Origin: Idiomarina loihiensis L2TR
GTDB lineage: Bacteria > Pseudomonadota > Gammaproteobacteria > Enterobacterales > Alteromonadaceae
Assembly (NCBI RefSeq): GCF_000008465.1
Contig: NC_006512.1
Span: 2,550,001 to 2,582,000, forward strand
Direction: 5' to 3'
Length of the DNA stretch: 32,000 nt
Positions 4,747-11,718 of the stretch are shown here, piece by piece. Numbering within the stretch: the first letter of the stretch is position 1; every line of letters begins with the position of its first letter. The notes below the pieces were generated by a model. It saw only the letters and a program-made list of their open reading frames with translations. It had not been told where the DNA came from and made no database searches. The translations under genes and the position numbers were made by a program.

Positions 4747-5994
4747 TTGAGTAAAGTATGGCTTTTAAGGACTCGTGGTATTACTTTGCAGACTCAACCG
4801 GCGCCTGTCGCAAAACCGTCTAAATTCCCCCTGCTGTTCGGCTTGCTCGTACTGGTATTGCTAGGACTTAATTTACGTCCTTTGCTGACATCCGTAGGGC
4901 CACTAACCGATGAGCTACAAACCATCACAGGTCTGTCTTTCAGTGAGATATCGCTGTTAACGACACTACCCATTCTAATGATTGGCTTAATGGCCTTATT
5001 TGCCGGGCGGGTGACAACAGCTTTGGGTTACCGGCAAGGTATTGGGCTGGGCTTGTTGATTCTGTGCGCAGGCCTTACTGCCCGGCTATTTGAGCCGACC
5101 AGCACCAGTATGATTACCAGTGCTTTAGTGGGCGGAGTTGGCATTGCGTTACTGCATATCGTTATTCCGGAACTGACCAAACAACAGTATTTGAATCGTT
5201 TGGGTATGGTCACTGGCCTTTGGTCTGCGGCACTCATGGGCGGCGCGGCGCTAGGTGCTGTCGCGACTCCATGGGCTGCCAATTTATTACCTGAGCGCTT
5301 TCAGGCACTAGGCAGCTGGTCTCTTTTGGCGGCAATAGTGCTGATTATTTGGTACTTACCATTTAACCGCACACCAGTTGCCAGCATTCCTCCCCGGCAC
5401 CTGTTACTGCGGGCTCACCGTTACTCCCGGGCTTGGCTTCTGGGTATTTATTTCGCCCTGGTGAATGCCGGATACGCCGGATTTATTGCGTGGATAGCGC
5501 CATTTTATGGTGAATTCGGTTGGCCCGCACAAAAAGCAGGGAATTTACTGGCGCTATTTTCTCTGGTTCAGGTTATCGGCGCTTTGCTGCTGCCGGCTCT
5601 CTCGCGCACACAAGACCGAAGGTTGTGGCTAACAGCCGCGGTACTTATTCAAATGGCAGGCTTTGCGGGGTTAAGCTGGTTTCCGACCGAAGCTCCCTGG
5701 CTATGGTCGGCACTTTGCGGCTTTGGCTTAGGTGGTGCCTTCCCGCTATGTATTGTTATGGCGCTGGACCATATCGATAACCCTGTGCAGGCAGGACGCC
5801 TGGTTTCTTTTATGCAGGGTATCGGTTTTATGTTTGCCAGCCTGATGCCGTTGTTGACCGGATGGTTCAGAGACGTTTACGGTAATTACAGTTTAGGCTG
5901 GCAGTTACATATTATTGTCGGCATTCTTATTTTGCTTATAACCTGGCAATTTAACCCTAACAGCTACCGTGACCTGTTTAACTTGCGGGAATAA
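4747..5994 (+). CDS. MFS transporter, CynX/NimT-like
   Basis: It has about 12 predicted TM segments. '[18 protein letters not shown]...' matches the CynX N-terminal signature region from memory. The start is uncertain: 4747 is TTG, and another in-frame TTG lies at 4786. Confidence 0.78.
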
Positions 5995-6568
5995 TTCTCG
6001 CAATTATATCATCGGCCAAGCTTTCCAGCTGCTGCCGCGGAATTTCTCGCCTGGCCATGGTTCGTAAACCAATAATATTCGTCTGTAATAAAAGGCCCAG
6101 ACGTTCAGGAGACTGCGAACTACCAATTTCTCCTCGCTGCTGCGCCTGCTGAAACGCCTCTGTAAAAAGCTGCTCGAATTTTTCAAGATAACTTTGTACC
6201 GGCTCGCTAAACGCTTTGTCTTCCGGCGTAAATTCCAGCAAGGTTTTTACCAGCATACAAGCCTGCGTTGGTGCACAGGTTGCTGTCATTACCGCAATGT
6301 TACGAAGGTACAAACTTATTCCCTGCAGCACCGAAGATTTTTGCGCTAAGGCTTGCTTAAACTCTTCCTCTGCGAGAGAGGAATATTCTTCAAGGGTCTC
6401 TTTAAACAGGGCTTCTTTATTGCCAAATGCAGCATAAATACTTCCTGGCCTCATATCCATTTCTTCCTCTATGTCTTTCATAGAGGTTGCGTGGTATCCC
6501 TTGCGCCAGAAAAGCTTCAGCGCATTGTTAAGCGCTGTTTCCCGGTGAAATTTAGGCGTTCTGGGCAT
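5978..6568 (-). CDS. TetR/AcrR-family transcriptional regulator
   Basis: The 196-aa product has an N-terminal TetR HTH (ALKLFWRKGYHATSMKDIEEEMDMRPGSIYAAFGNKEALF). Its 3' end overlaps the MFS gene by 17 bp. It is divergent from pyp. Confidence 0.85.
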   Translation of the reverse strand: MPRTPKFHRETALNNALKLFWRKGYHATSMKDIEEEMDMRPGSIYAAFGNKEALFKETLEEYSSLAEEEFKQALAQKSSVLQGISLYLRNIAVMTATCAPTQACMLVKTLLEFTPEDKAFSEPVQSYLEKFEQLFTEAFQQAQQRGEIGSSQSPERLGLLLQTNIIGLRTMARREIPRQQLESLADDIIARIIPAS

Positions 6569-6711
6569 TATTTTTATCCTTAATTATTTACCTGAAGGCA
6601 AGTATAGACCTGCTTGTTGTTAATTTCACTTTAAGAAGTGTTAAGAAAACATGATCTAAATATCTCGGGCTCCACTATTAACCCATACATTTCGTACTTA
6701 GAGGTAACACA

Positions 6712-7089
6712 ATGGAGATTGTTCAATTCGGTTCTGATGATATCGAAAACACTTTATCTAAAATGTCAGATGACAAGTTAAACGACATTGCTTTTGGCGC
6801 TATTCAGTTAGACGCTAGCGGTAAAATTATTCAATACAACGCCGCCGAAGGCGACATTACCGGTCGTGATCCGGGCGCTGTCGTTGGCAAAAACTTTTTT
6901 AACGAAGTGGCACCATGCACCAACAGCCCTGAGTTTAAAGGACGCTTCGACGAAGGCGTTAAAAACGGCAATTTAAACACCATGTTTGAATATGTTTTTG
7001 ACTACGAAATGCAACCGACCAAAGTTAAAGTTCATATGAAAAAAGCTTTAACCGGCGACACCTACTGGGTATTCGTTAAGCGACTATAA
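6712..7089 (+). CDS. pyp: Photoactive yellow protein (PYP), a p-coumaric-acid PAS photoreceptor
   Basis: The 125-aa product aligns by eye nearly end to end with Halorhodospira halophila PYP. Y42, E46, T50, R52 and the chromophore Cys69 (VAPC69T) are all conserved. The C-terminus is YWVFVKRL, and an AGAGGT Shine-Dalgarno precedes the ATG. Confidence 0.95.
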
Positions 7090-7090
7090 A

Positions 7091-8359
7091 GTGACAGACT
7101 CACTTCAGCAGCACCTTATTGTTACTGTCATAGGCGATCTTATCGCCGATGAACTTGCGCGTATGCGTCCGGCTGAAAGTGAGTACTGGAAGCGTCGCCA
7201 ATGGCATGAAGACGACACGTTAGTGGCAAAAAACAAGTCAACCAAAGACAATGGCGAGGATGACGTTGTAGTTGATTCGCTGGAACGACTGGCCTTAGCT
7301 GGCCGGGTAGTTCAGTTCTTTCATATGGGGGACAGCGGAGTGGAAGATTACCTTCTGCGCCGTAACAGTCTGGCTGAATGGGCTGAAGTTGTTCTGAAAT
7401 CGCGGCAAGTTCACACCCAAAACTTAACAGTTACCACTTCCGGCAGCACCGGCCAACCCAAAGCCTGCGAGCATTCATGGAGTGCATTAGTTGAGGAAGT
7501 GAGAGAGTTTGTCCGTATCTTTGACAACGATTATGAGTTATCTCCAGTTCGTATTGTCGCTTTAGTGCCAAGCCACCATATTTATGGGTTTCTGTTTACC
7601 GTATTGTTGCCACATCTTGTTGATGCGCCGGTTTTGCGTGGTTTTAAAGCTTATAGCCACGTTCGCAACGGTGGCTTACGTGCCGGAGATGCTGTTGTCG
7701 GTTTCCCTGAGTTACTCACTCAGTTATCGTCAGAGATGCCACCATTACCGCCCGGAGTGCTTTTTATTAGCTCTGCCGGACCATGCCCGGCCAGTACGGT
7801 GCACCAGTTGTATGCTATAGGCGCAGCTCGCGCTGTGGAAATTTATGGTAGTTCCGAGACTGCAGGTATGGCTTACCGGAGTAAACCAGAAAATAACTAC
7901 CGTTTGTTATCCCGCTGGCGCAAAAATACAGAAAACCATCAGCAACTAATTGATAGGCAAACAAAGGTTATTTACGAAATACCAGATAATACCCAGTGGC
8001 ATACAGAGGATGAATTCCAAATCACCGGACGAGTCGACAAGGCGGTTTCGATACGAGGAATCAATGTGTTCCCGGCTCATATTGCTAAGTGTCTGCGTCA
8101 ACACCCGGCAGTTGCCGATGCAACGGTACGCCCGATGAGATCCGACGAAGGCTATGGACTGAAGGCCTTTATTGTTTTACAGGAGAATATTAGTGAAACG
8201 GTAACTGAACAAAGTGTTCAAACCTGGTTAAGTGACAACCTCTGCGCTGCGGAAATACCGGAGCGAATTAGCTTTGGAGAGCAATTACCCATAAATTCCA
8301 TGGGTAAGGCGCAAGACTGGAGTATCGATAACTCGCCAACGGGTAAGCCGTTAAATTAA
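7091..8359 (+). CDS. pcl: Short adenylate-forming enzyme, p-coumarate-CoA ligase-like (PYP chromophore activation)
   Basis: The GTG start lies 1 nt after the pyp stop. ANL-superfamily motifs are present: TSGSTGQPKA (A3), EIYGSSETAG (A5), TGRVDKAVSIRGINVFPAHI (A8) and the C-terminal catalytic-Lys region NSMGKA. At 422 aa it is shorter than plant-type 4CLs. The pyp-pcl adjacency is known from other PYP organisms. Confidence 0.8.
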   Translation: MTDSLQQHLIVTVIGDLIADELARMRPAESEYWKRRQWHEDDTLVAKNKSTKDNGEDDVVVDSLERLALAGRVVQFFHMGDSGVEDYLLRRNSLAEWAEVVLKSRQVHTQNLTVTTSGSTGQPKACEHSWSALVEEVREFVRIFDNDYELSPVRIVALVPSHHIYGFLFTVLLPHLVDAPVLRGFKAYSHVRNGGLRAGDAVVGFPELLTQLSSEMPPLPPGVLFISSAGPCPASTVHQLYAIGAARAVEIYGSSETAGMAYRSKPENNYRLLSRWRKNTENHQQLIDRQTKVIYEIPDNTQWHTEDEFQITGRVDKAVSIRGINVFPAHIAKCLRQHPAVADATVRPMRSDEGYGLKAFIVLQENISETVTEQSVQTWLSDNLCAAEIPERISFGEQLPINSMGKAQDWSIDNSPTGKPLN

Positions 8360-9534
8360 TTCAACGCACGTAATAACACATCGTCAAACCTCAGATCTGT
8401 TATTTGTGCAGACTCCAACGCTATTTTATGCTCAATGCCGTGCTGCTCTAACAACTGCCGGGTAGCCTGCAGGCAATTCTTATTTTGCTCTGCTGACAGC
8501 GTTGACATGAGTACAACGATAATTCCTTTTCCTAAGCAACCCGGAGTGTCGTAATCCTGAATGTTCTGACGGACAATTTTGCTGACGGCTTTTAACGTTT
8601 CTGCGTTATTTGCAACGCGCACGACCATGACATAATACTGATGCTCAGAATGAGCCTGGTATAAACTAAAGCGCCGTTGCAGAGACTGCAGCATAAGCCG
8701 TCGATTATAAAATCCGGTGTGCTCGTCATTGCCACCGGTTTCCCTGAGCTTGAGCTCAAGTTCTTTATAGTCGGTAATATTCTGCGTGGTACCAAAAATA
8801 ATTTCACGCCCGGCTTCGTCAATGCGATAAATCCCCGACTGCCGTAACCATCGGATTTCACCGTCGCCAAGCATAATACGATGCTCGACATCTCTCGCGC
8901 CAGACTGTTTAACGGCATTAATTGCGTCGGTTACCGCTTGTCTGTCTTCGGGATGAGTTCTTTCTAAAGTCAGGGCTAATGAGGGCGTTACCCTGGACTT
9001 GTCCAAACCATGTAAATTGTACATGGTATCCGACCACTGCGACTGCCCGGTTTCTAAATCAAGCTGCCAATGCCCGAGCCCGGCAACTCGTTCAGCAAGC
9101 ATTAAATTTCGCTGGTTCTCTTCAACTTTCAGCTCCAGCATTTTTCTCTCAGTAATGTCCAGCATCTGTCCATTCCAGAGTGTACTGCCGTCGGCCTGTT
9201 GACTGGTCACTGCGTGCCCGTATATCCAGCTTACTCTTCCATTTTTAATCACTCGATACTCTTTCACCCACAAATATTGATAGCGGGCAGAGTTGTGCAT
9301 ACTGCTCAAAACAGATTGTAAGTCGTCGGGATGAATAATTTCACTCAGCAATGTCACGTCATTTGCCAGTGACTCAGCAGAGCACCCAAAAATGGCCTCA
9401 ACGCCCTGACTGACATAATTAAATTTCAATTGCCCGTCCGGTGAGCGTTCAAGCTGGTATAGCGCACCCGGTACCGAGTTTGCTAAATGTTCAAGATTAA
9501 CCAAGCTTTTTTCAAAATCCATAAACTGCAACAT
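8356..9534 (-). CDS. Cytoplasmic PAS-PAS signalling protein with a degenerate, shortened GGDEF-like C-terminal domain
   Basis: There are two PAS/PAC modules (..YVSQGVEAIFG.., ..ITERK..; ..GHWQLDL..QWSD..HPEDR.., ..QNITDYK..). These are followed by the GGDEF-domain entry motif DEHTGFYNRRL. However, GKGII stands where GG[DE]EF would be, and the D-x-D...GH..GD segment is missing. Confidence 0.75.
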   Translation of the reverse strand: MLQFMDFEKSLVNLEHLANSVPGALYQLERSPDGQLKFNYVSQGVEAIFGCSAESLANDVTLLSEIIHPDDLQSVLSSMHNSARYQYLWVKEYRVIKNGRVSWIYGHAVTSQQADGSTLWNGQMLDITERKMLELKVEENQRNLMLAERVAGLGHWQLDLETGQSQWSDTMYNLHGLDKSRVTPSLALTLERTHPEDRQAVTDAINAVKQSGARDVEHRIMLGDGEIRWLRQSGIYRIDEAGREIIFGTTQNITDYKELELKLRETGGNDEHTGFYNRRLMLQSLQRRFSLYQAHSEHQYYVMVVRVANNAETLKAVSKIVRQNIQDYDTPGCLGKGIIVVLMSTLSAEQNKNCLQATRQLLEQHGIEHKIALESAQITDLRFDDVLLRALN

Positions 9535-9675
9535 GACTCTTTATCGACAACTATAACAGCCATAATCTTAACCTACAGGCCAGAAACTAGACAGCAAATA
9601 AATGCAAAGTGACCCATTACAAATCTTTTTAAGTAGTCTATATATAAATAAATCATAATAAAAACAGGAGCTTTT

Positions 9676-11718
9676 ATGTCAGCCGAGAAGCAAAAATGGC
9701 ATTCTGCAATTTTACTGCCAGTATTTCTTCCTGCGGTTATCGTTATAGCTTTACTGGTTATAGGCACTTTAAGTGCCCCGGAAAAAGCCGGCGAGCTGTT
9801 TGACTGGACACTGGCTGGTATTACCGACAACTTCGGTTGGTTTTATATGTTAGCAGTCGCACTTTTTCTCATGTTTATTATTGGTGTGGCCGTTTCAAGT
9901 TGGGGCAAAATTAAATTAGGACCCGACCATTGCGAACCGGAGTACAGTTTTACGTCCTGGTTCGCCATGCTATTTTCCGCCGGATACGGTATTGCCTTGC
10001 TGTTCTTTGGTGTATCCGAGCCCATACTGCATTATGCCGAACCACCGGCAGGCGCTGCAGAAACCGTAAGTTCAGCCAAGCAGGCTATGCAAATTGCGTA
10101 TTTCCACTGGGGTTTTCATATCTGGGCTATTTATGGCTTAGTTGGCTTAGTACTAGCTTACTTTTCGTTTCGTCACGGGTTACCGCTTTCTATGCGTTCA
10201 ACGCTCTACCCGCTTATTGGCGACAGAATCAACGGCCCTATTGGGCATACAGTCGATACCTTCGCGATCCTCGGCACCATGTTTGGTATTGCGACAACCC
10301 TTGGGCTTTCGGTTATTCAAATTAATGCAGGCCTCAACTACCTGTGGGAGGACATTCCGGTTGGTAAAACGGTTCAGGTTATTTCGATTGGCGTCATCAC
10401 GTTAGCCGCAATCGCCTCGGTCGTTGCTGGTATGGATAAAGGCATTAAACGGCTGTCCCTGATTAACATAACCTTAGTCATATTCTTGTTGCTGTTTGTT
10501 TTCGCGGTTGGGCCGACTATCCATATTCTGGAAACCTTCTTGCAAAATACCGGCGCTTACATAAGTGGCATTGTAGAGCGCACCTTCAATTTACAGGCCT
10601 ATGAGCGCAGTGACTGGATTGGTAACTGGACATTATTTATCTTCGGCTGGACCATTGCCTGGGCACCTTTTGTCGGGCTGTTTATTGCCAAAATCAGCCG
10701 CGGCCGCACCATCCGCCAGTTTGTTTTTGGCGTTATGCTGGTACCAACCATATTCACTTTCTTCTGGTTTGCCGTATTCGGTGACACAGCGTTGAATATG
10801 ATCATGAACGAGGGTTACACAACCTTAATTTCAGAAGTTCAGGATAACCAGGCAGTAGCGCTGTTTAAGCTCTACGAAAATCTGCCTATGACCAGTGTCC
10901 TGAGCTTCCTGACAGTACTGTTAATCATCACCTTCTTTGTAACGTCATCGGATTCTGGCTCATTGGTTATTGATTCATTGTCCTCTGGCGGCATGATGGA
11001 AACGCCTGTCTGGCAGCGTGTTTTCTGGGCGAGCACTGAAGGTATTGTTGCATCCGTATTGCTCGTAGCGGGTGGGTTAGGAGCTCTGCAAACCGCAGCT
11101 ATTACCAGCGCGTTACCCTTTGCGATCATTATCTTAATATCGGCGGCGGGTATGTGGCGTGCGCTCATAATTGAAGGTCATCAGTCTAAAAGTCTTCAGA
11201 GTCACCGCCATTCTCATCGTCGCGGAGTCAACGAGGGAGCCGACTATTGGAAAAAACGTCTGGCTGGGCTGGTAGACTTTCCGAATAAAGAGTCAGTACT
11301 TAAGTTTATCAACGGACCAGCTACCGAAAGCATGAAAAAGGTGCGGGACGAGTTAAAAGATCAGGACTGGCCGGCAGAATTCCGAGCTGACGAAGAGCAT
11401 AACCGCATTATTCTCAGCGTTGAGCGAAAAGGCGACTTAGAATTTGCTTACGAAATTCGCTTAAAAGACTACCTGCTGCCAGAGTATGCTTTAACTAACG
11501 ATGAAGGCAGAGAAGTTTATTATCGAGCTGAAGTATTCCTCAGACAAGGTGGGCAGTCTTATAATCTATATGGTTATGAGCAGACTGATATCATCAACGA
11601 TGTGATTAATCAGTTTGAGAACTATCTGCACTTCCGTCATAACAGTCCCGGAGTTCTCCCGTGGGACCTTGAAAAGCATGACGAAGACCTGAATGAAGAC
11701 CTTGAATCACAAAAGTAA
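9676..11718 (+). CDS. BCCT-family (betaine/choline/carnitine) transporter with a long cytoplasmic C-terminal tail, BetT-like
   Basis: The 680-aa product carries the BCCT signature region NWTLFIFGWTIAWAPFVGLFIAKISRGRTIRQF. It has 12 TM segments followed by a hydrophilic tail of about 180 aa. An AGGAG Shine-Dalgarno precedes the ATG. Confidence 0.9.
   Translation: MSAEKQKWHSAILLPVFLPAVIVIALLVIGTLSAPEKAGELFDWTLAGITDNFGWFYMLAVALFLMFIIGVAVSSWGKIKLGPDHCEPEYSFTSWFAMLFSAGYGIALLFFGVSEPILHYAEPPAGAAETVSSAKQAMQIAYFHWGFHIWAIYGLVGLVLAYFSFRHGLPLSMRSTLYPLIGDRINGPIGHTVDTFAILGTMFGIATTLGLSVIQINAGLNYLWEDIPVGKTVQVISIGVITLAAIASVVAGMDKGIKRLSLINITLVIFLLLFVFAVGPTIHILETFLQNTGAYISGIVERTFNLQAYERSDWIGNWTLFIFGWTIAWAPFVGLFIAKISRGRTIRQFVFGVMLVPTIFTFFWFAVFGDTALNMIMNEGYTTLISEVQDNQAVALFKLYENLPMTSVLSFLTVLLIITFFVTSSDSGSLVIDSLSSGGMMETPVWQRVFWASTEGIVASVLLVAGGLGALQTAAITSALPFAIIILISAAGMWRALIIEGHQSKSLQSHRHSHRRGVNEGADYWKKRLAGLVDFPNKESVLKFINGPATESMKKVRDELKDQDWPAEFRADEEHNRIILSVERKGDLEFAYEIRLKDYLLPEYALTNDEGREVYYRAEVFLRQGGQSYNLYGYEQTDIINDVINQFENYLHFRHNSPGVLPWDLEKHDEDLNEDLESQK

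Follow-up and report, generated by a model that had tools for sequence, protein, structure and literature searches.

To our knowledge, the textbook photoreceptor PYP (photoactive yellow protein) still lacks an identified downstream partner, and Idiomarina loihiensis is the only organism for which we know of an in vivo PYP phenotype, a biofilm suppressed by light. The PYP of this species (Il-PYP, UniProt Q5QYH6) has been characterised, with a lambda max of 447 nm and a pB lifetime of 0.23 s (Table 1 of PMC12826048), and blue light was reported to reduce I. loihiensis biofilm (van der Horst et al. 2009, as related in PMC12826048 and PMC9664959). According to the accounts given in the latter two articles, PYP has been proposed to act through the adjacent GGDEF protein, this neighbour controlling c-di-GMP levels. 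In one survey GGDEF genes were counted in 29 of 113 pyp operons (PMC12826048). A genetic tie between PYP and a GGDEF-family output is seen in such operons, in the Thermochromatium tepidum protein Ppd (a PYP-phytochrome-GGDEF/EAL fusion) and in the locus described here. Another close system is the Halorhodospira halophila-type pyp-pcl-tal operon, with which our locus shares the order pyp then pcl on the same strand and the logic of chromophore loading.

The locus lies in a window of 32,000 bp of the I. loihiensis L2TR genome (NC_006512.1, positions 2,550,001 to 2,582,000; coordinates below are those of the window, and positions in kb those of the genome). It is the same as, or nearly identical to, the published Il-PYP locus, with a stand-alone 125-aa PYP of canonical active site followed by pcl and an adjacent GGDEF-family gene; it is, in other words, the already studied Idiomarina loihiensis-type PYP system. 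An earlier reading made from the letters of the window alone (the sequence-only reading) had described a TetR gene, pyp, pcl and a convergent gene for a PAS-PAS-GGDEF-like protein, here called PPG, and the ORFs were as described. On the left the group is flanked by a gene for a CynX/NimT-family MFS transporter (4747..5994, + strand; NF007256, 605 bits) and by the TetR-family regulator (5978..6568, - strand; TetR_N and TetR_C_13 domains), which is divergent from pyp, and on the right by a gene for a BetT-like BCCT transporter (9676..11718, + strand; PF02028, 618 bits). We consider it probable that the system combines the known pyp-pcl cassette, a clade-specific non-enzymatic PPG with a PYP-independent function, and a chromophore supplied by a tyrosine ammonia-lyase (TAL) encoded at 143 kb.

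The pyp gene (6712..7089, + strand) encodes a protein of 125 aa that matched TIGR02373 over residues 2-125 with 206.1 bits (cut-off 143.05). Cys69, to which the chromophore is bound, and Tyr42/Glu46/Thr50/Arg52, the residues of the hydrogen-bond network, were all five at the expected positions, as had been claimed from the sequence (Y42, E46, T50, R52 and C69), and the protein was 72-99% identical to the PYPs of 80 loci. A single nucleotide (A7090) separates pyp from pcl (7091..8359, + strand, GTG start), whose product is a short p-coumarate-CoA ligase-like adenylating enzyme (pCL) of 422 aa with AMP-binding and AMP-binding_C domains (ANL adenylation). TIGR02372 was its best NCBIfam match and by far the top family (273.5 bits, under the equivalog cut-off of 334.7; the second family gave 82 bits); this match and the coordinates bear out the short pCL-type enzyme that had been placed 1 nt downstream of pyp. 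At 78 of the 80 related loci the gene after pyp was a pcl homologue (32-93% identity), the sequence of the other two being cut off just after pyp or within pcl, and the omega of pcl was ~0.1. PYP would act as the blue-light sensor of this I. loihiensis lineage cassette, and pCL, translationally coupled, would activate p-coumarate and load Cys69.

PPG is encoded convergently to pcl (8356..9534, - strand). Its true start is probably at M5 (position 9522; 388 aa), because all the orthologs begin at the residue aligned with M5. Two PAS domains were recognized: PAS-A at residues ~24-126 (9157..9465, - strand), with a PAS_3 match and AF2 secondary structure of pLDDT >90, and PAS-B at residues ~153-252 (8779..9078, - strand), with its best PAS_3 stretch at residues 166-245, support from the AF2 model, and PDB matches to 3nja and FixL 8js5. 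They are followed by a degenerate GGDEF-like domain at residues ~268-392 (8359..8733, - strand), which alignment with intact paralogs showed to be truncated at the C-terminus. Pfam PF00990 matched this domain marginally (28 bits, cut-off 23.8, profile positions 4-123 of 161), the weakest of the 34 PF00990 matches in the genome. Relative to the intact paralogs P0016, P0018, P0027 and P0030, two 7-residue deletions have removed the DxDHFK and YGHxxGD segments, and with them the metal- and substrate-binding segment DxDHFKxxND...GHxxGD; the GGEEF of the paralogs reads LGKGI in PPG and LGNGL in its orthologs. At the I-site, RxxD is replaced by QDYD in the window protein and appears as RDYD in some orthologs, so that this site varies from one family member to another. 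The opening motif of the domain, DxxTGxxNRR, is invariant, and AF2 predicted an alpha/beta core with pLDDT ~90. The catalytically dead GGDEF-like output proposed by the sequence-only reading is thus seen in the alignment as motif loss, deletions and truncation. PPG as an active cyclase was rejected, the catalytic motifs being lost, and the protein is predicted to be unable to make c-di-GMP.

Non-catalytic GGDEF folds kept as structural or regulatory modules are found in the PAS-PAS-GGDEF(degenerate)-EAL protein DosP (PDB 9cmf) and in PA0861/RbdA (PDB 5xgd), and in a Foldseek comparison the whole PPG chain aligned to both DosP (TMq 0.43, PAS-PAS-GGDEF part) and PA0861. Unlike these proteins, PPG has neither an EAL domain nor any other enzymatic output, lacks the GTP-binding segments and does not conserve the RxxD I-site. 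It also differs from Ppd and the GGDEF proteins of pyp operons, which are fusions or co-directional and whose domains are apparently intact, whereas PPG is separate, convergent, dead and truncated. A phmmer search of the PDB with PPG gave PAS matches only and no GGDEF structure; with the dead domain alone, a search of 1.84 billion representatives returned its own family and one marginal match only, which suggests that the degenerate domain belongs to no wider family.

The nearest homologues of PPG outside its family were intact cyclases of 550-700 aa (31-40% identity). Together with the internal deletions and the truncation, these homologues would fit a decaying, functionless remnant of a PAS-PAS-GGDEF diguanylate cyclase whose place beside pyp is accidental, but the reading frame was intact in 15 of 15 species, and omega was ~0.06 overall and 0.02-0.09 in each domain, the dead GGDEF included, comparable to the flanking housekeeping genes (values from close, unsaturated pairs only, distant pairs being saturated with dS not computable or >1.5). 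Moreover, the AF2 model is a confident, compact fold, and a true remnant at the same locus, the 3' end of pcl in some relatives (see below), shows further deletion. PPG as a pseudogene was rejected on the omega values and the intact frames, and we regard the remnant explanation as extremely improbable. PPG is under strong purifying selection; the dead domain is itself strongly constrained and therefore does something. The demonstration of a dead GGDEF domain in PPG (deletions, LGKGI, truncation) under purifying selection is new here, as are the distribution of PPG, its retention after the loss of pyp and the answer to the question of the TAL (see below).

We then compared the gene order with that of relatives. 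In genome G156, which has neither PYP nor PPG, the order is CynX-TetR-BCCT, with a TetR of 47% identity, and in G119 the CynX/NimT gene is directly beside the BCCT gene; where the insertion is missing, the BCCT gene has CynX or TetR as its neighbour, and the CynX/NimT gene is likewise a resident flank. Relative to these arrangements, pyp, pcl and PPG form a three-gene insertion flanked by two resident genes, TetR and BCCT; its right edge is the divergent PPG/BCCT intergenic region (9535..9675). The TetR gene was considered as a part of the pyp module and rejected, since it occupies the same site in the PYP-less, PPG-less G156; it is a resident gene outside the inserted module. The pyp-pcl pair now sits between these two genes, beside a clade-specific PPG. 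Both pyp-pcl and PPG appear on the same branch and at the same site, and they are found apart only through later deletion; such a joint appearance is also what a functional module would look like.

PYP was present in 21 and PPG in 15 of the 26 Idiomarina species, and PPG adjoined pyp-pcl in 13 of the 13 species that have both. These 13 species are not independent observations because they form one clade with the whole neighbourhood conserved. At 72 other pyp loci, belonging to 8 PYP-positive Idiomarina species and 64 further close loci, PPG was missing, and the flanks of these 72 loci showed no recurrent PAS or GGDEF neighbour. PPG is clade-specific and occurs only within Idiomarina. Conservation of the pyp-pcl-PAS/GGDEF-like arrangement, raised as a matter of synteny by the sequence-only reading, hence held in all the Idiomarina species with both genes and failed at the 72 other loci. 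The coding ends of pcl and PPG overlap convergently by 4 nt (TTAA, 8356..8359), the two stop codons sharing 2 nt; this overlap is not conserved, the abyssalis group having a gap of ~14 nt. No terminator-like hairpin was found at the junction in the scan, and the closest + strand terminator candidate (8745-8763) is already inside the PPG gene, ~390 nt from the junction.

Several of these features would suit PPG as the direct partner of PYP, the published model amended in one point: light-activated PYP, in the pB state, would bind PPG, probably at a PAS domain, and the dead GGDEF would dock on another effector or on one of the GGDEF/EAL enzymes, of which the genome has 33 besides PPG, and modulate it, so that biofilm is lowered in blue light. 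The invariable adjacency, the origin of the three genes as one insertion relative to CynX-TetR-BCCT, the tight convergent junction, at which no terminator-like hairpin was found, and the strong constraint on the dead domain all argue in this direction, as do the blue-light biofilm phenotype and the adjacent-GGDEF model as described in the literature. Against it stand the single clade behind the 13 species, the PYP-positive Idiomarina species and close PYP loci that have neither PPG nor a recurrent PAS/GGDEF neighbour, the convergent orientation of PPG and pyp, which are not co-transcribed, and an intact PPG with omega ~0.07 in lineages without PYP. We judge a direct partnership rather unlikely. 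The sequence-only reading had called PPG an attractive transducer candidate; the adjacency and the common insertion agree with this, but the idea had already been published, and both the absence of PPG from the 72 other pyp loci and its retention after pyp-pcl loss in two species weaken it. As the system is known and the transducer idea not new, what our data offer are useful refinements.

Two complete genomes (G203 and G220) and the metagenome loci L090-L092 have the same ~1.4 kb deletion, which took pyp and most of pcl and left a 3' remnant of pcl that has suffered a further deletion. No PYP above the cut-off was found in G203 and G220, while the positive control G204 gave 207 bits. PPG is intact in these deletion lineages, and its omega among them was 0.05-0.07 at dS of 0.34-0.45. 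Since PPG is kept and constrained in species that have deleted pyp-pcl, its function does not require PYP, which shows that PPG has a PYP-independent function; the data are compatible with an additional PYP-dependent role in species with both genes. These natural PYP-deletion species represent ready-made controls.

These results bear on the published scheme, in which the neighbour controls c-di-GMP: PPG is without every catalytic element and outlives PYP in two sister species. The published signal path, in which PYP would set c-di-GMP levels by way of its GGDEF neighbour, is affected accordingly, as the neighbour is predicted not to be a cyclase, belongs to one Idiomarina clade and is maintained without PYP; it is therefore to be viewed as a possible adaptor, not an enzyme, and the partner of PYP should also be sought elsewhere. 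PPG would be a non-enzymatic signalling or adaptor protein, because c-di-GMP synthesis appears impossible and yet the gene is under strong purifying selection. If PPG takes any part in PYP signalling in I. loihiensis, it would be a wider PAS-based sensor to which PYP adds one of the inputs, and not a cyclase switched by light. A bolder version, which we hold to be unlikely, makes PPG the first relay of a stand-alone PYP: as a non-enzymatic PAS-PAS adaptor, it would bind PYP in its light-activated form, and its dead GGDEF would attach to one of the active c-di-GMP enzymes of the cell and switch it, while other PAS-sensed signals would also be integrated, hence its survival where PYP was lost.

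The other part of the preferred reading concerns the chromophore. The sequence-only reading had noted no MIO-type ammonia-lyase in the window, which a PF00221 search confirmed, and had left the p-coumarate source unexplained, suggesting a whole-genome search for a TAL by its Ala-Ser-Gly motif. The genome contained two PF00221 genes, at 143 kb and 2,621 kb. The second, 39 kb past the window end, is HutH, beside hutU and with S/H at the selectivity positions; a TAL immediately outside the window, envisaged by the same reading as a conventional supply, does not agree with these locations. The 143-kb lyase (PF00221, 539 bits) lies ~426 kb from the pyp locus and is the only non-HutH lyase of the genome. 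It carries the ASG MIO triad (ASGD) and F/H at the substrate-selectivity positions 89/90, within LTRFHGCGLG. F/H is described as a TAL class that includes TALilo, a reported I. loihiensis TAL, and thus an enzyme reported to convert tyrosine to p-coumarate (PMC9321829).

Sister species carry pyp-pcl-tal with an F/H-type lyase as third gene, and 40 pyp-linked lyases followed pcl at the 72 related PPG-less loci. The 143-kb lyase was 61-64% identical to the lyase that comes after pcl at 14 loci of Idiomarina, Aliidiomarina and Arsukibacterium, in which LTRFHGCGLG (F/H) and the ASG triad were identical. The only two species missing a second (non-HutH) lyase are both PYP-less. Unlike in the H. halophila-type operon, the tal gene is here distant from pyp and has F/H instead of the classical H/L. 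The p-coumarate source is thus no longer unexplained: a predicted TAL of the same type as in the sister pyp-pcl-tal operons is encoded elsewhere in the genome, which solves the puzzle of the missing TAL and removes an apparent metabolic gap. We propose that the loihiensis/abyssalis/piscisalsi clade goes back to an ancestor in which tal was separated from pyp-pcl, sister species keeping the operon.

The 143-kb TAL lies amid a KS pair, a KR, an ApeP-like dehydratase, an ACP, an adenylating enzyme, acyltransferases, a LolA-like protein and an MMPL exporter, and Pfam and NCBIfam matches from L085 9853 to L086 5425 place it in an aryl-polyene (APE) cluster (a genome search with the ApeP-like family PF22817 gave 0 matches, controls included, and protein queries were used in its place). 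Its setting among APE-type genes recalls the flexirubin/aryl-polyene clusters with a tyrosine ammonia-lyase of the FlxA type, but the lyase was far under the FlxA equivalog cut-off (327 vs 700 bits) and is of the same F/H type as the sister pyp-linked lyases. The chromophore precursor would come from this single lyase inside the APE pigment cluster, which suggests that PYP and the aryl-polyene pathway draw on one p-coumarate source. Alternatively, p-coumarate for PYP would be scavenged from the environment, the lyase serving only aryl-polyene pigment synthesis. Its embedding in an APE-type cluster and its retention in the PYP-less G203 and G220, there also beside the APE exporter, agree with this, and I. 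loihiensis reportedly takes up and incorporates exogenous chromophore analogues. However, this F/H lyase also stands third in the pyp-pcl-tal of sister species, the close relatives G078 and G184, without an APE cluster, keep a stand-alone lyase copy, and the two species lacking a second lyase also lack PYP, and we find scavenging distinctly improbable.

As to regulatory sequences, promoter and terminator scans of the locus gave counts no higher than shuffles, and Rfam found no RNA family over the whole window. A promoter-like site at 9682-9655 (- strand) is a consensus match only, in a scan with counts no higher than those of shuffles. The TetR/pyp divergent control region (6569..6711) holds the palindrome CACTTTAAGAAGTG; the loihiensis/abyssalis group has this region conserved, the piscisalsi group has a different one, and in G156 it is unalignable. 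The resident TetR may control pyp.

The genome consists of one contig of 2,839,318 bp, of which the window covers positions 2,550,001-2,582,000, and the gene layout that a sequence-only reading had proposed around the photoactive yellow protein (PYP) was confirmed. ORF calls gave a CynX-type MFS transporter (4747-5994, plus strand), a TetR regulator (5978-6568, minus), PPG, the 392-aa PAS-PAS-GGDEF-like gene (8356-9534, minus), and a BetT-like BCCT transporter (9676-11718, plus). Between TetR and PPG, pyp (6712-7089, plus) matched TIGR02373 with 206 bits (cut-off 143), and all five of Y42, E46, T50, R52 and C69 were found in its product. The plus-strand pcl (7091-8359) starts with a GTG after a 1-nt spacer from the pyp stop, and its coding end overlaps that of PPG by 4 nt (TTAA). 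Its product, pCL, fitted best the PYP-associated 4-coumarate-CoA ligase family TIGR02372 (273.5 bits, below the 334.7 cut-off and well ahead of other families). By sequence, PYP and pCL are both bona fide. The closest relatives by PYP were Idiomarina species (91-99% identical). The divergence of pCL outpaces that of PYP: 32-44% vs 72-84% identity across other genera, and 71-75% vs 91-97% in the abyssalis group.

In the TetR/pyp divergent region the palindrome CACTTTAAGAAGTG (6627-6640) is kept in the loihiensis/abyssalis group and replaced in the piscisalsi group; the region is unalignable in the PYP-less genome G156. The palindrome is a candidate TetR operator and, because it is conserved, TetR may be a putative repressor of the divergent pyp promoter. 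A promoter scan performed no better than shuffles.

PPG is under constraint and combines a PAS pair with a dead GGDEF domain. An alignment of PPG, its orthologs and intact PAS-GGDEF relatives showed that the opening DxxTGxxNRR motif is retained and that two 7-residue deletions removed the DxDHFK and YGHxxGD segments. The GGEEF position of cyclases reads LGKGI in PPG and LGNGL in the orthologs, the RxxD I-site is QDYD (RDYD in some orthologs), and the AKxxGRNR element falls beyond the PPG C-terminal end; the dead output noted from the sequence was borne out. The Pfam GGDEF match (28 bits, profile positions 4-123 of 161) was the lowest-scoring of the 34 in the genome. A phmmer search of PDB with PPG returned PAS structures only, and a search of 1.84 billion cluster representatives with the isolated dead domain gave no match from outside its family. 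The AlphaFold2 model (53-sequence alignment, mean pLDDT 89) presented a pair of PAS domains and a C-terminal domain with a compact alpha/beta fold; Foldseek aligned DosP and PA0861 with the whole chain, and FixL and LOV-PAS-HK with the PAS pair. Omega values (Nei-Gojobori, unsaturated pairs) of the dead domain were 0.02-0.09 and close to those of the PPG PAS domains; over whole genes they were ~0.06 for PPG, 0.02-0.05 for CynX, BCCT and PYP, and ~0.1 for pCL. On the lost motifs, the low omega and the compact predicted fold, PPG is a functional, non-catalytic protein. Its real start is probably at 9522, giving a 388-aa product, since the first Met of every ortholog corresponds to residue 5 (M5) and not to the ATG at 9534.

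Full-length PPG orthologs were confined to Idiomarina; the next best matches were cyclases of 550-700 aa, 31-40% identical over the PAS pair. The sequence-only reading had called for a synteny check among PYP encoders, and conservation did not extend far: of 80 PYP loci in GTDB species, only those of eight close Idiomarina species have PPG adjoining pyp-pcl, and these are all wholly collinear from CynX to MaoC. The remaining 72 loci have pyp-pcl without PPG, and the 140 genes directly flanking them, tallied by Pfam family, included no recurrent PAS/GGDEF neighbour (CIA30 occurred 16 times, AceK 15, MCP 3 and HATPase_c 3). Within the 26 Idiomarina species, 13 have both PPG and PYP, adjacent in every case (13/13), two have PPG only, eight PYP only and three neither.

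The full arrangement is also present in I. piscisalsi (CP022133). Because G156, a congener lacking PYP and PPG, reads CynX-TetR-BCCT, and G119 reads CynX-BCCT with pyp-pcl-tal at another place in its genome, TetR is the resident gene and pyp-pcl-PPG a three-gene insertion. A TARA scaffold and two more metagenome contigs presented BCCT-PPG-TetR-CynX without pyp-pcl. When aligned, these three contigs and the genomes G203 and G220 had in common a ~1.4-kb deletion that took pyp together with 80% of pcl from its 5' end, leaving a remnant of 39-69 codons, with an extra 71-nt deletion in that of G203. The decaying pcl 3' remnants (L093, 3355-3471; L094, 4679-4882; L090, 9186-9302) point to one ancestral pyp-pcl deletion in the PYP-less Idiomarina lineages. 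No PYP scored above the cut-off in G203 or G220, both 100% complete (positive control G204, 207 bits).

The mutual divergence of G203, G220 and L090 is entirely later than the deletion, and PPG is intact in all three, with omega of 0.05-0.07 at dS 0.34-0.45, the same values as in PYP-bearing pairs. PPG thus has a PYP-independent function, being intact and constrained after the loss of pyp-pcl. Such retention speaks against PPG as a dedicated transducer, though it is compatible with an input from PYP in species that carry the two genes. These lineages are natural knock-outs and useful controls.

Il-PYP (Q5QYH6) is among the ten best-studied PYPs (lambda max 447 nm, pB lifetime 0.23 s), and the literature describes its photocycle and identifies it as the photoreceptor through which blue light reduces biofilm (PMC12826048). 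In the pathway proposed here, a tyrosine ammonia-lyase (TAL) would make p-coumarate, pCL would activate it and load Cys69, and blue light would drive PYP to the pB state. That PPG then relays the signal to biofilm as an adaptor, the transducer idea of the sequence-only reading, has in its favour that PPG adjoins pyp-pcl and that the idea is already published, but PPG is clade-restricted and kept after PYP loss; we consider this relay unlikely. Most of the remaining weight falls on PPG as an independent PAS sensor-adaptor merely sharing the site with pyp. The system is a known one, with the central partner idea and the remark on TAL already in print; the present results refine the published hypothesis on the partner and are not its discovery. 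What is new is that the neighbour is catalytically dead and restricted to one clade, that it has survived where pyp-pcl was naturally deleted, and that tal has been relocated to a pigment cluster.

The chromophore source had been called unexplained, yet a TAL is encoded elsewhere in the genome. The whole-genome search found two PF00221 genes: HutH at 2,621 kb (685-754 bits on HutH models, adjoining urocanate hydratase, S/H at selectivity positions 89/90) and a lyase at 143,212-144,585. In most related loci a ~520-aa lyase follows pcl (pyp-pcl-tal), and tal is reported within five genes for just ~10% of pyp genes (PMC9664959/PMC12826048). The pyp-linked lyases were of two types, classical H/L (n=26) and F/H (n=14). 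The lyase at 143 kb shares 61-64% identity with the F/H type, with an identical LTRFHGCGLG and the ASG triad present; TALilo, the reported I. loihiensis TAL (citing Jendresen 2015), has been placed in the F/H class (PMC9321829). Because the genome encodes this F/H-type TAL, the chemistry of chromophore supply is conventional and its location alone is unusual, ~426 kb away from pyp around the circular genome.

The F/H lyase is missing from only two species of the genus, both PYP-less, and occurs in three contexts: after pcl (62-66% identity); stand-alone, between a photolyase/cryptochrome-like pair and a prolyl oligopeptidase (68-69%; G078 and G184); and at this same chromosomal site inside a ~18-kb aryl-polyene (APE)-type cluster. 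The last arrangement was found in our genome and in all five other genomes whose lyase is at least 82% identical. The cluster (G000:C1 ~137,850-153,330; L085 9853 to L086 5425) contains acyltransferases including an LpxL-like one, an ACP, an adenylating enzyme, a GT2, the TAL, a thioesterase, a LolA-like protein, an MMPL exporter, a halogenase-like flavoenzyme, two KS, an ApeP-like dehydratase and a KR. As the cluster holds the only TAL of the genome, pigment synthesis and PYP may draw on a single source of p-coumarate.

The photolyase-prolyl oligopeptidase site takes two forms, a cryptochrome/photolyase-like gene with a stand-alone TAL of 68-69% identity (L087, G078:C2:210000-228000; L088, G184:C43:37000-55000) and the ~18-kb APE cluster with its own TAL (L085/L086), which is a cassette polymorphism. 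G212 and G213, with PYP 98-99% identical, have the stand-alone form, so very close species differ. A cryptochrome/photolyase-family gene also lies ~1 kb downstream of tal in pyp-pcl-tal Idiomarina (L014, L016, L020 and L052, ~10,040-11,530, minus strand), 50-52% identical to the neighbour of the stand-alone tal in G078; the link of tal with a further light-related gene is therefore a recurrent one. A 400-aa EAL-HDOD fusion (L086 9058-10260; G000 ~156,960-158,160), encoded only a few genes away from the TAL/APE site, has a partial EAL covering profile positions 114-236 only, and is another degenerate c-di-GMP-family protein.
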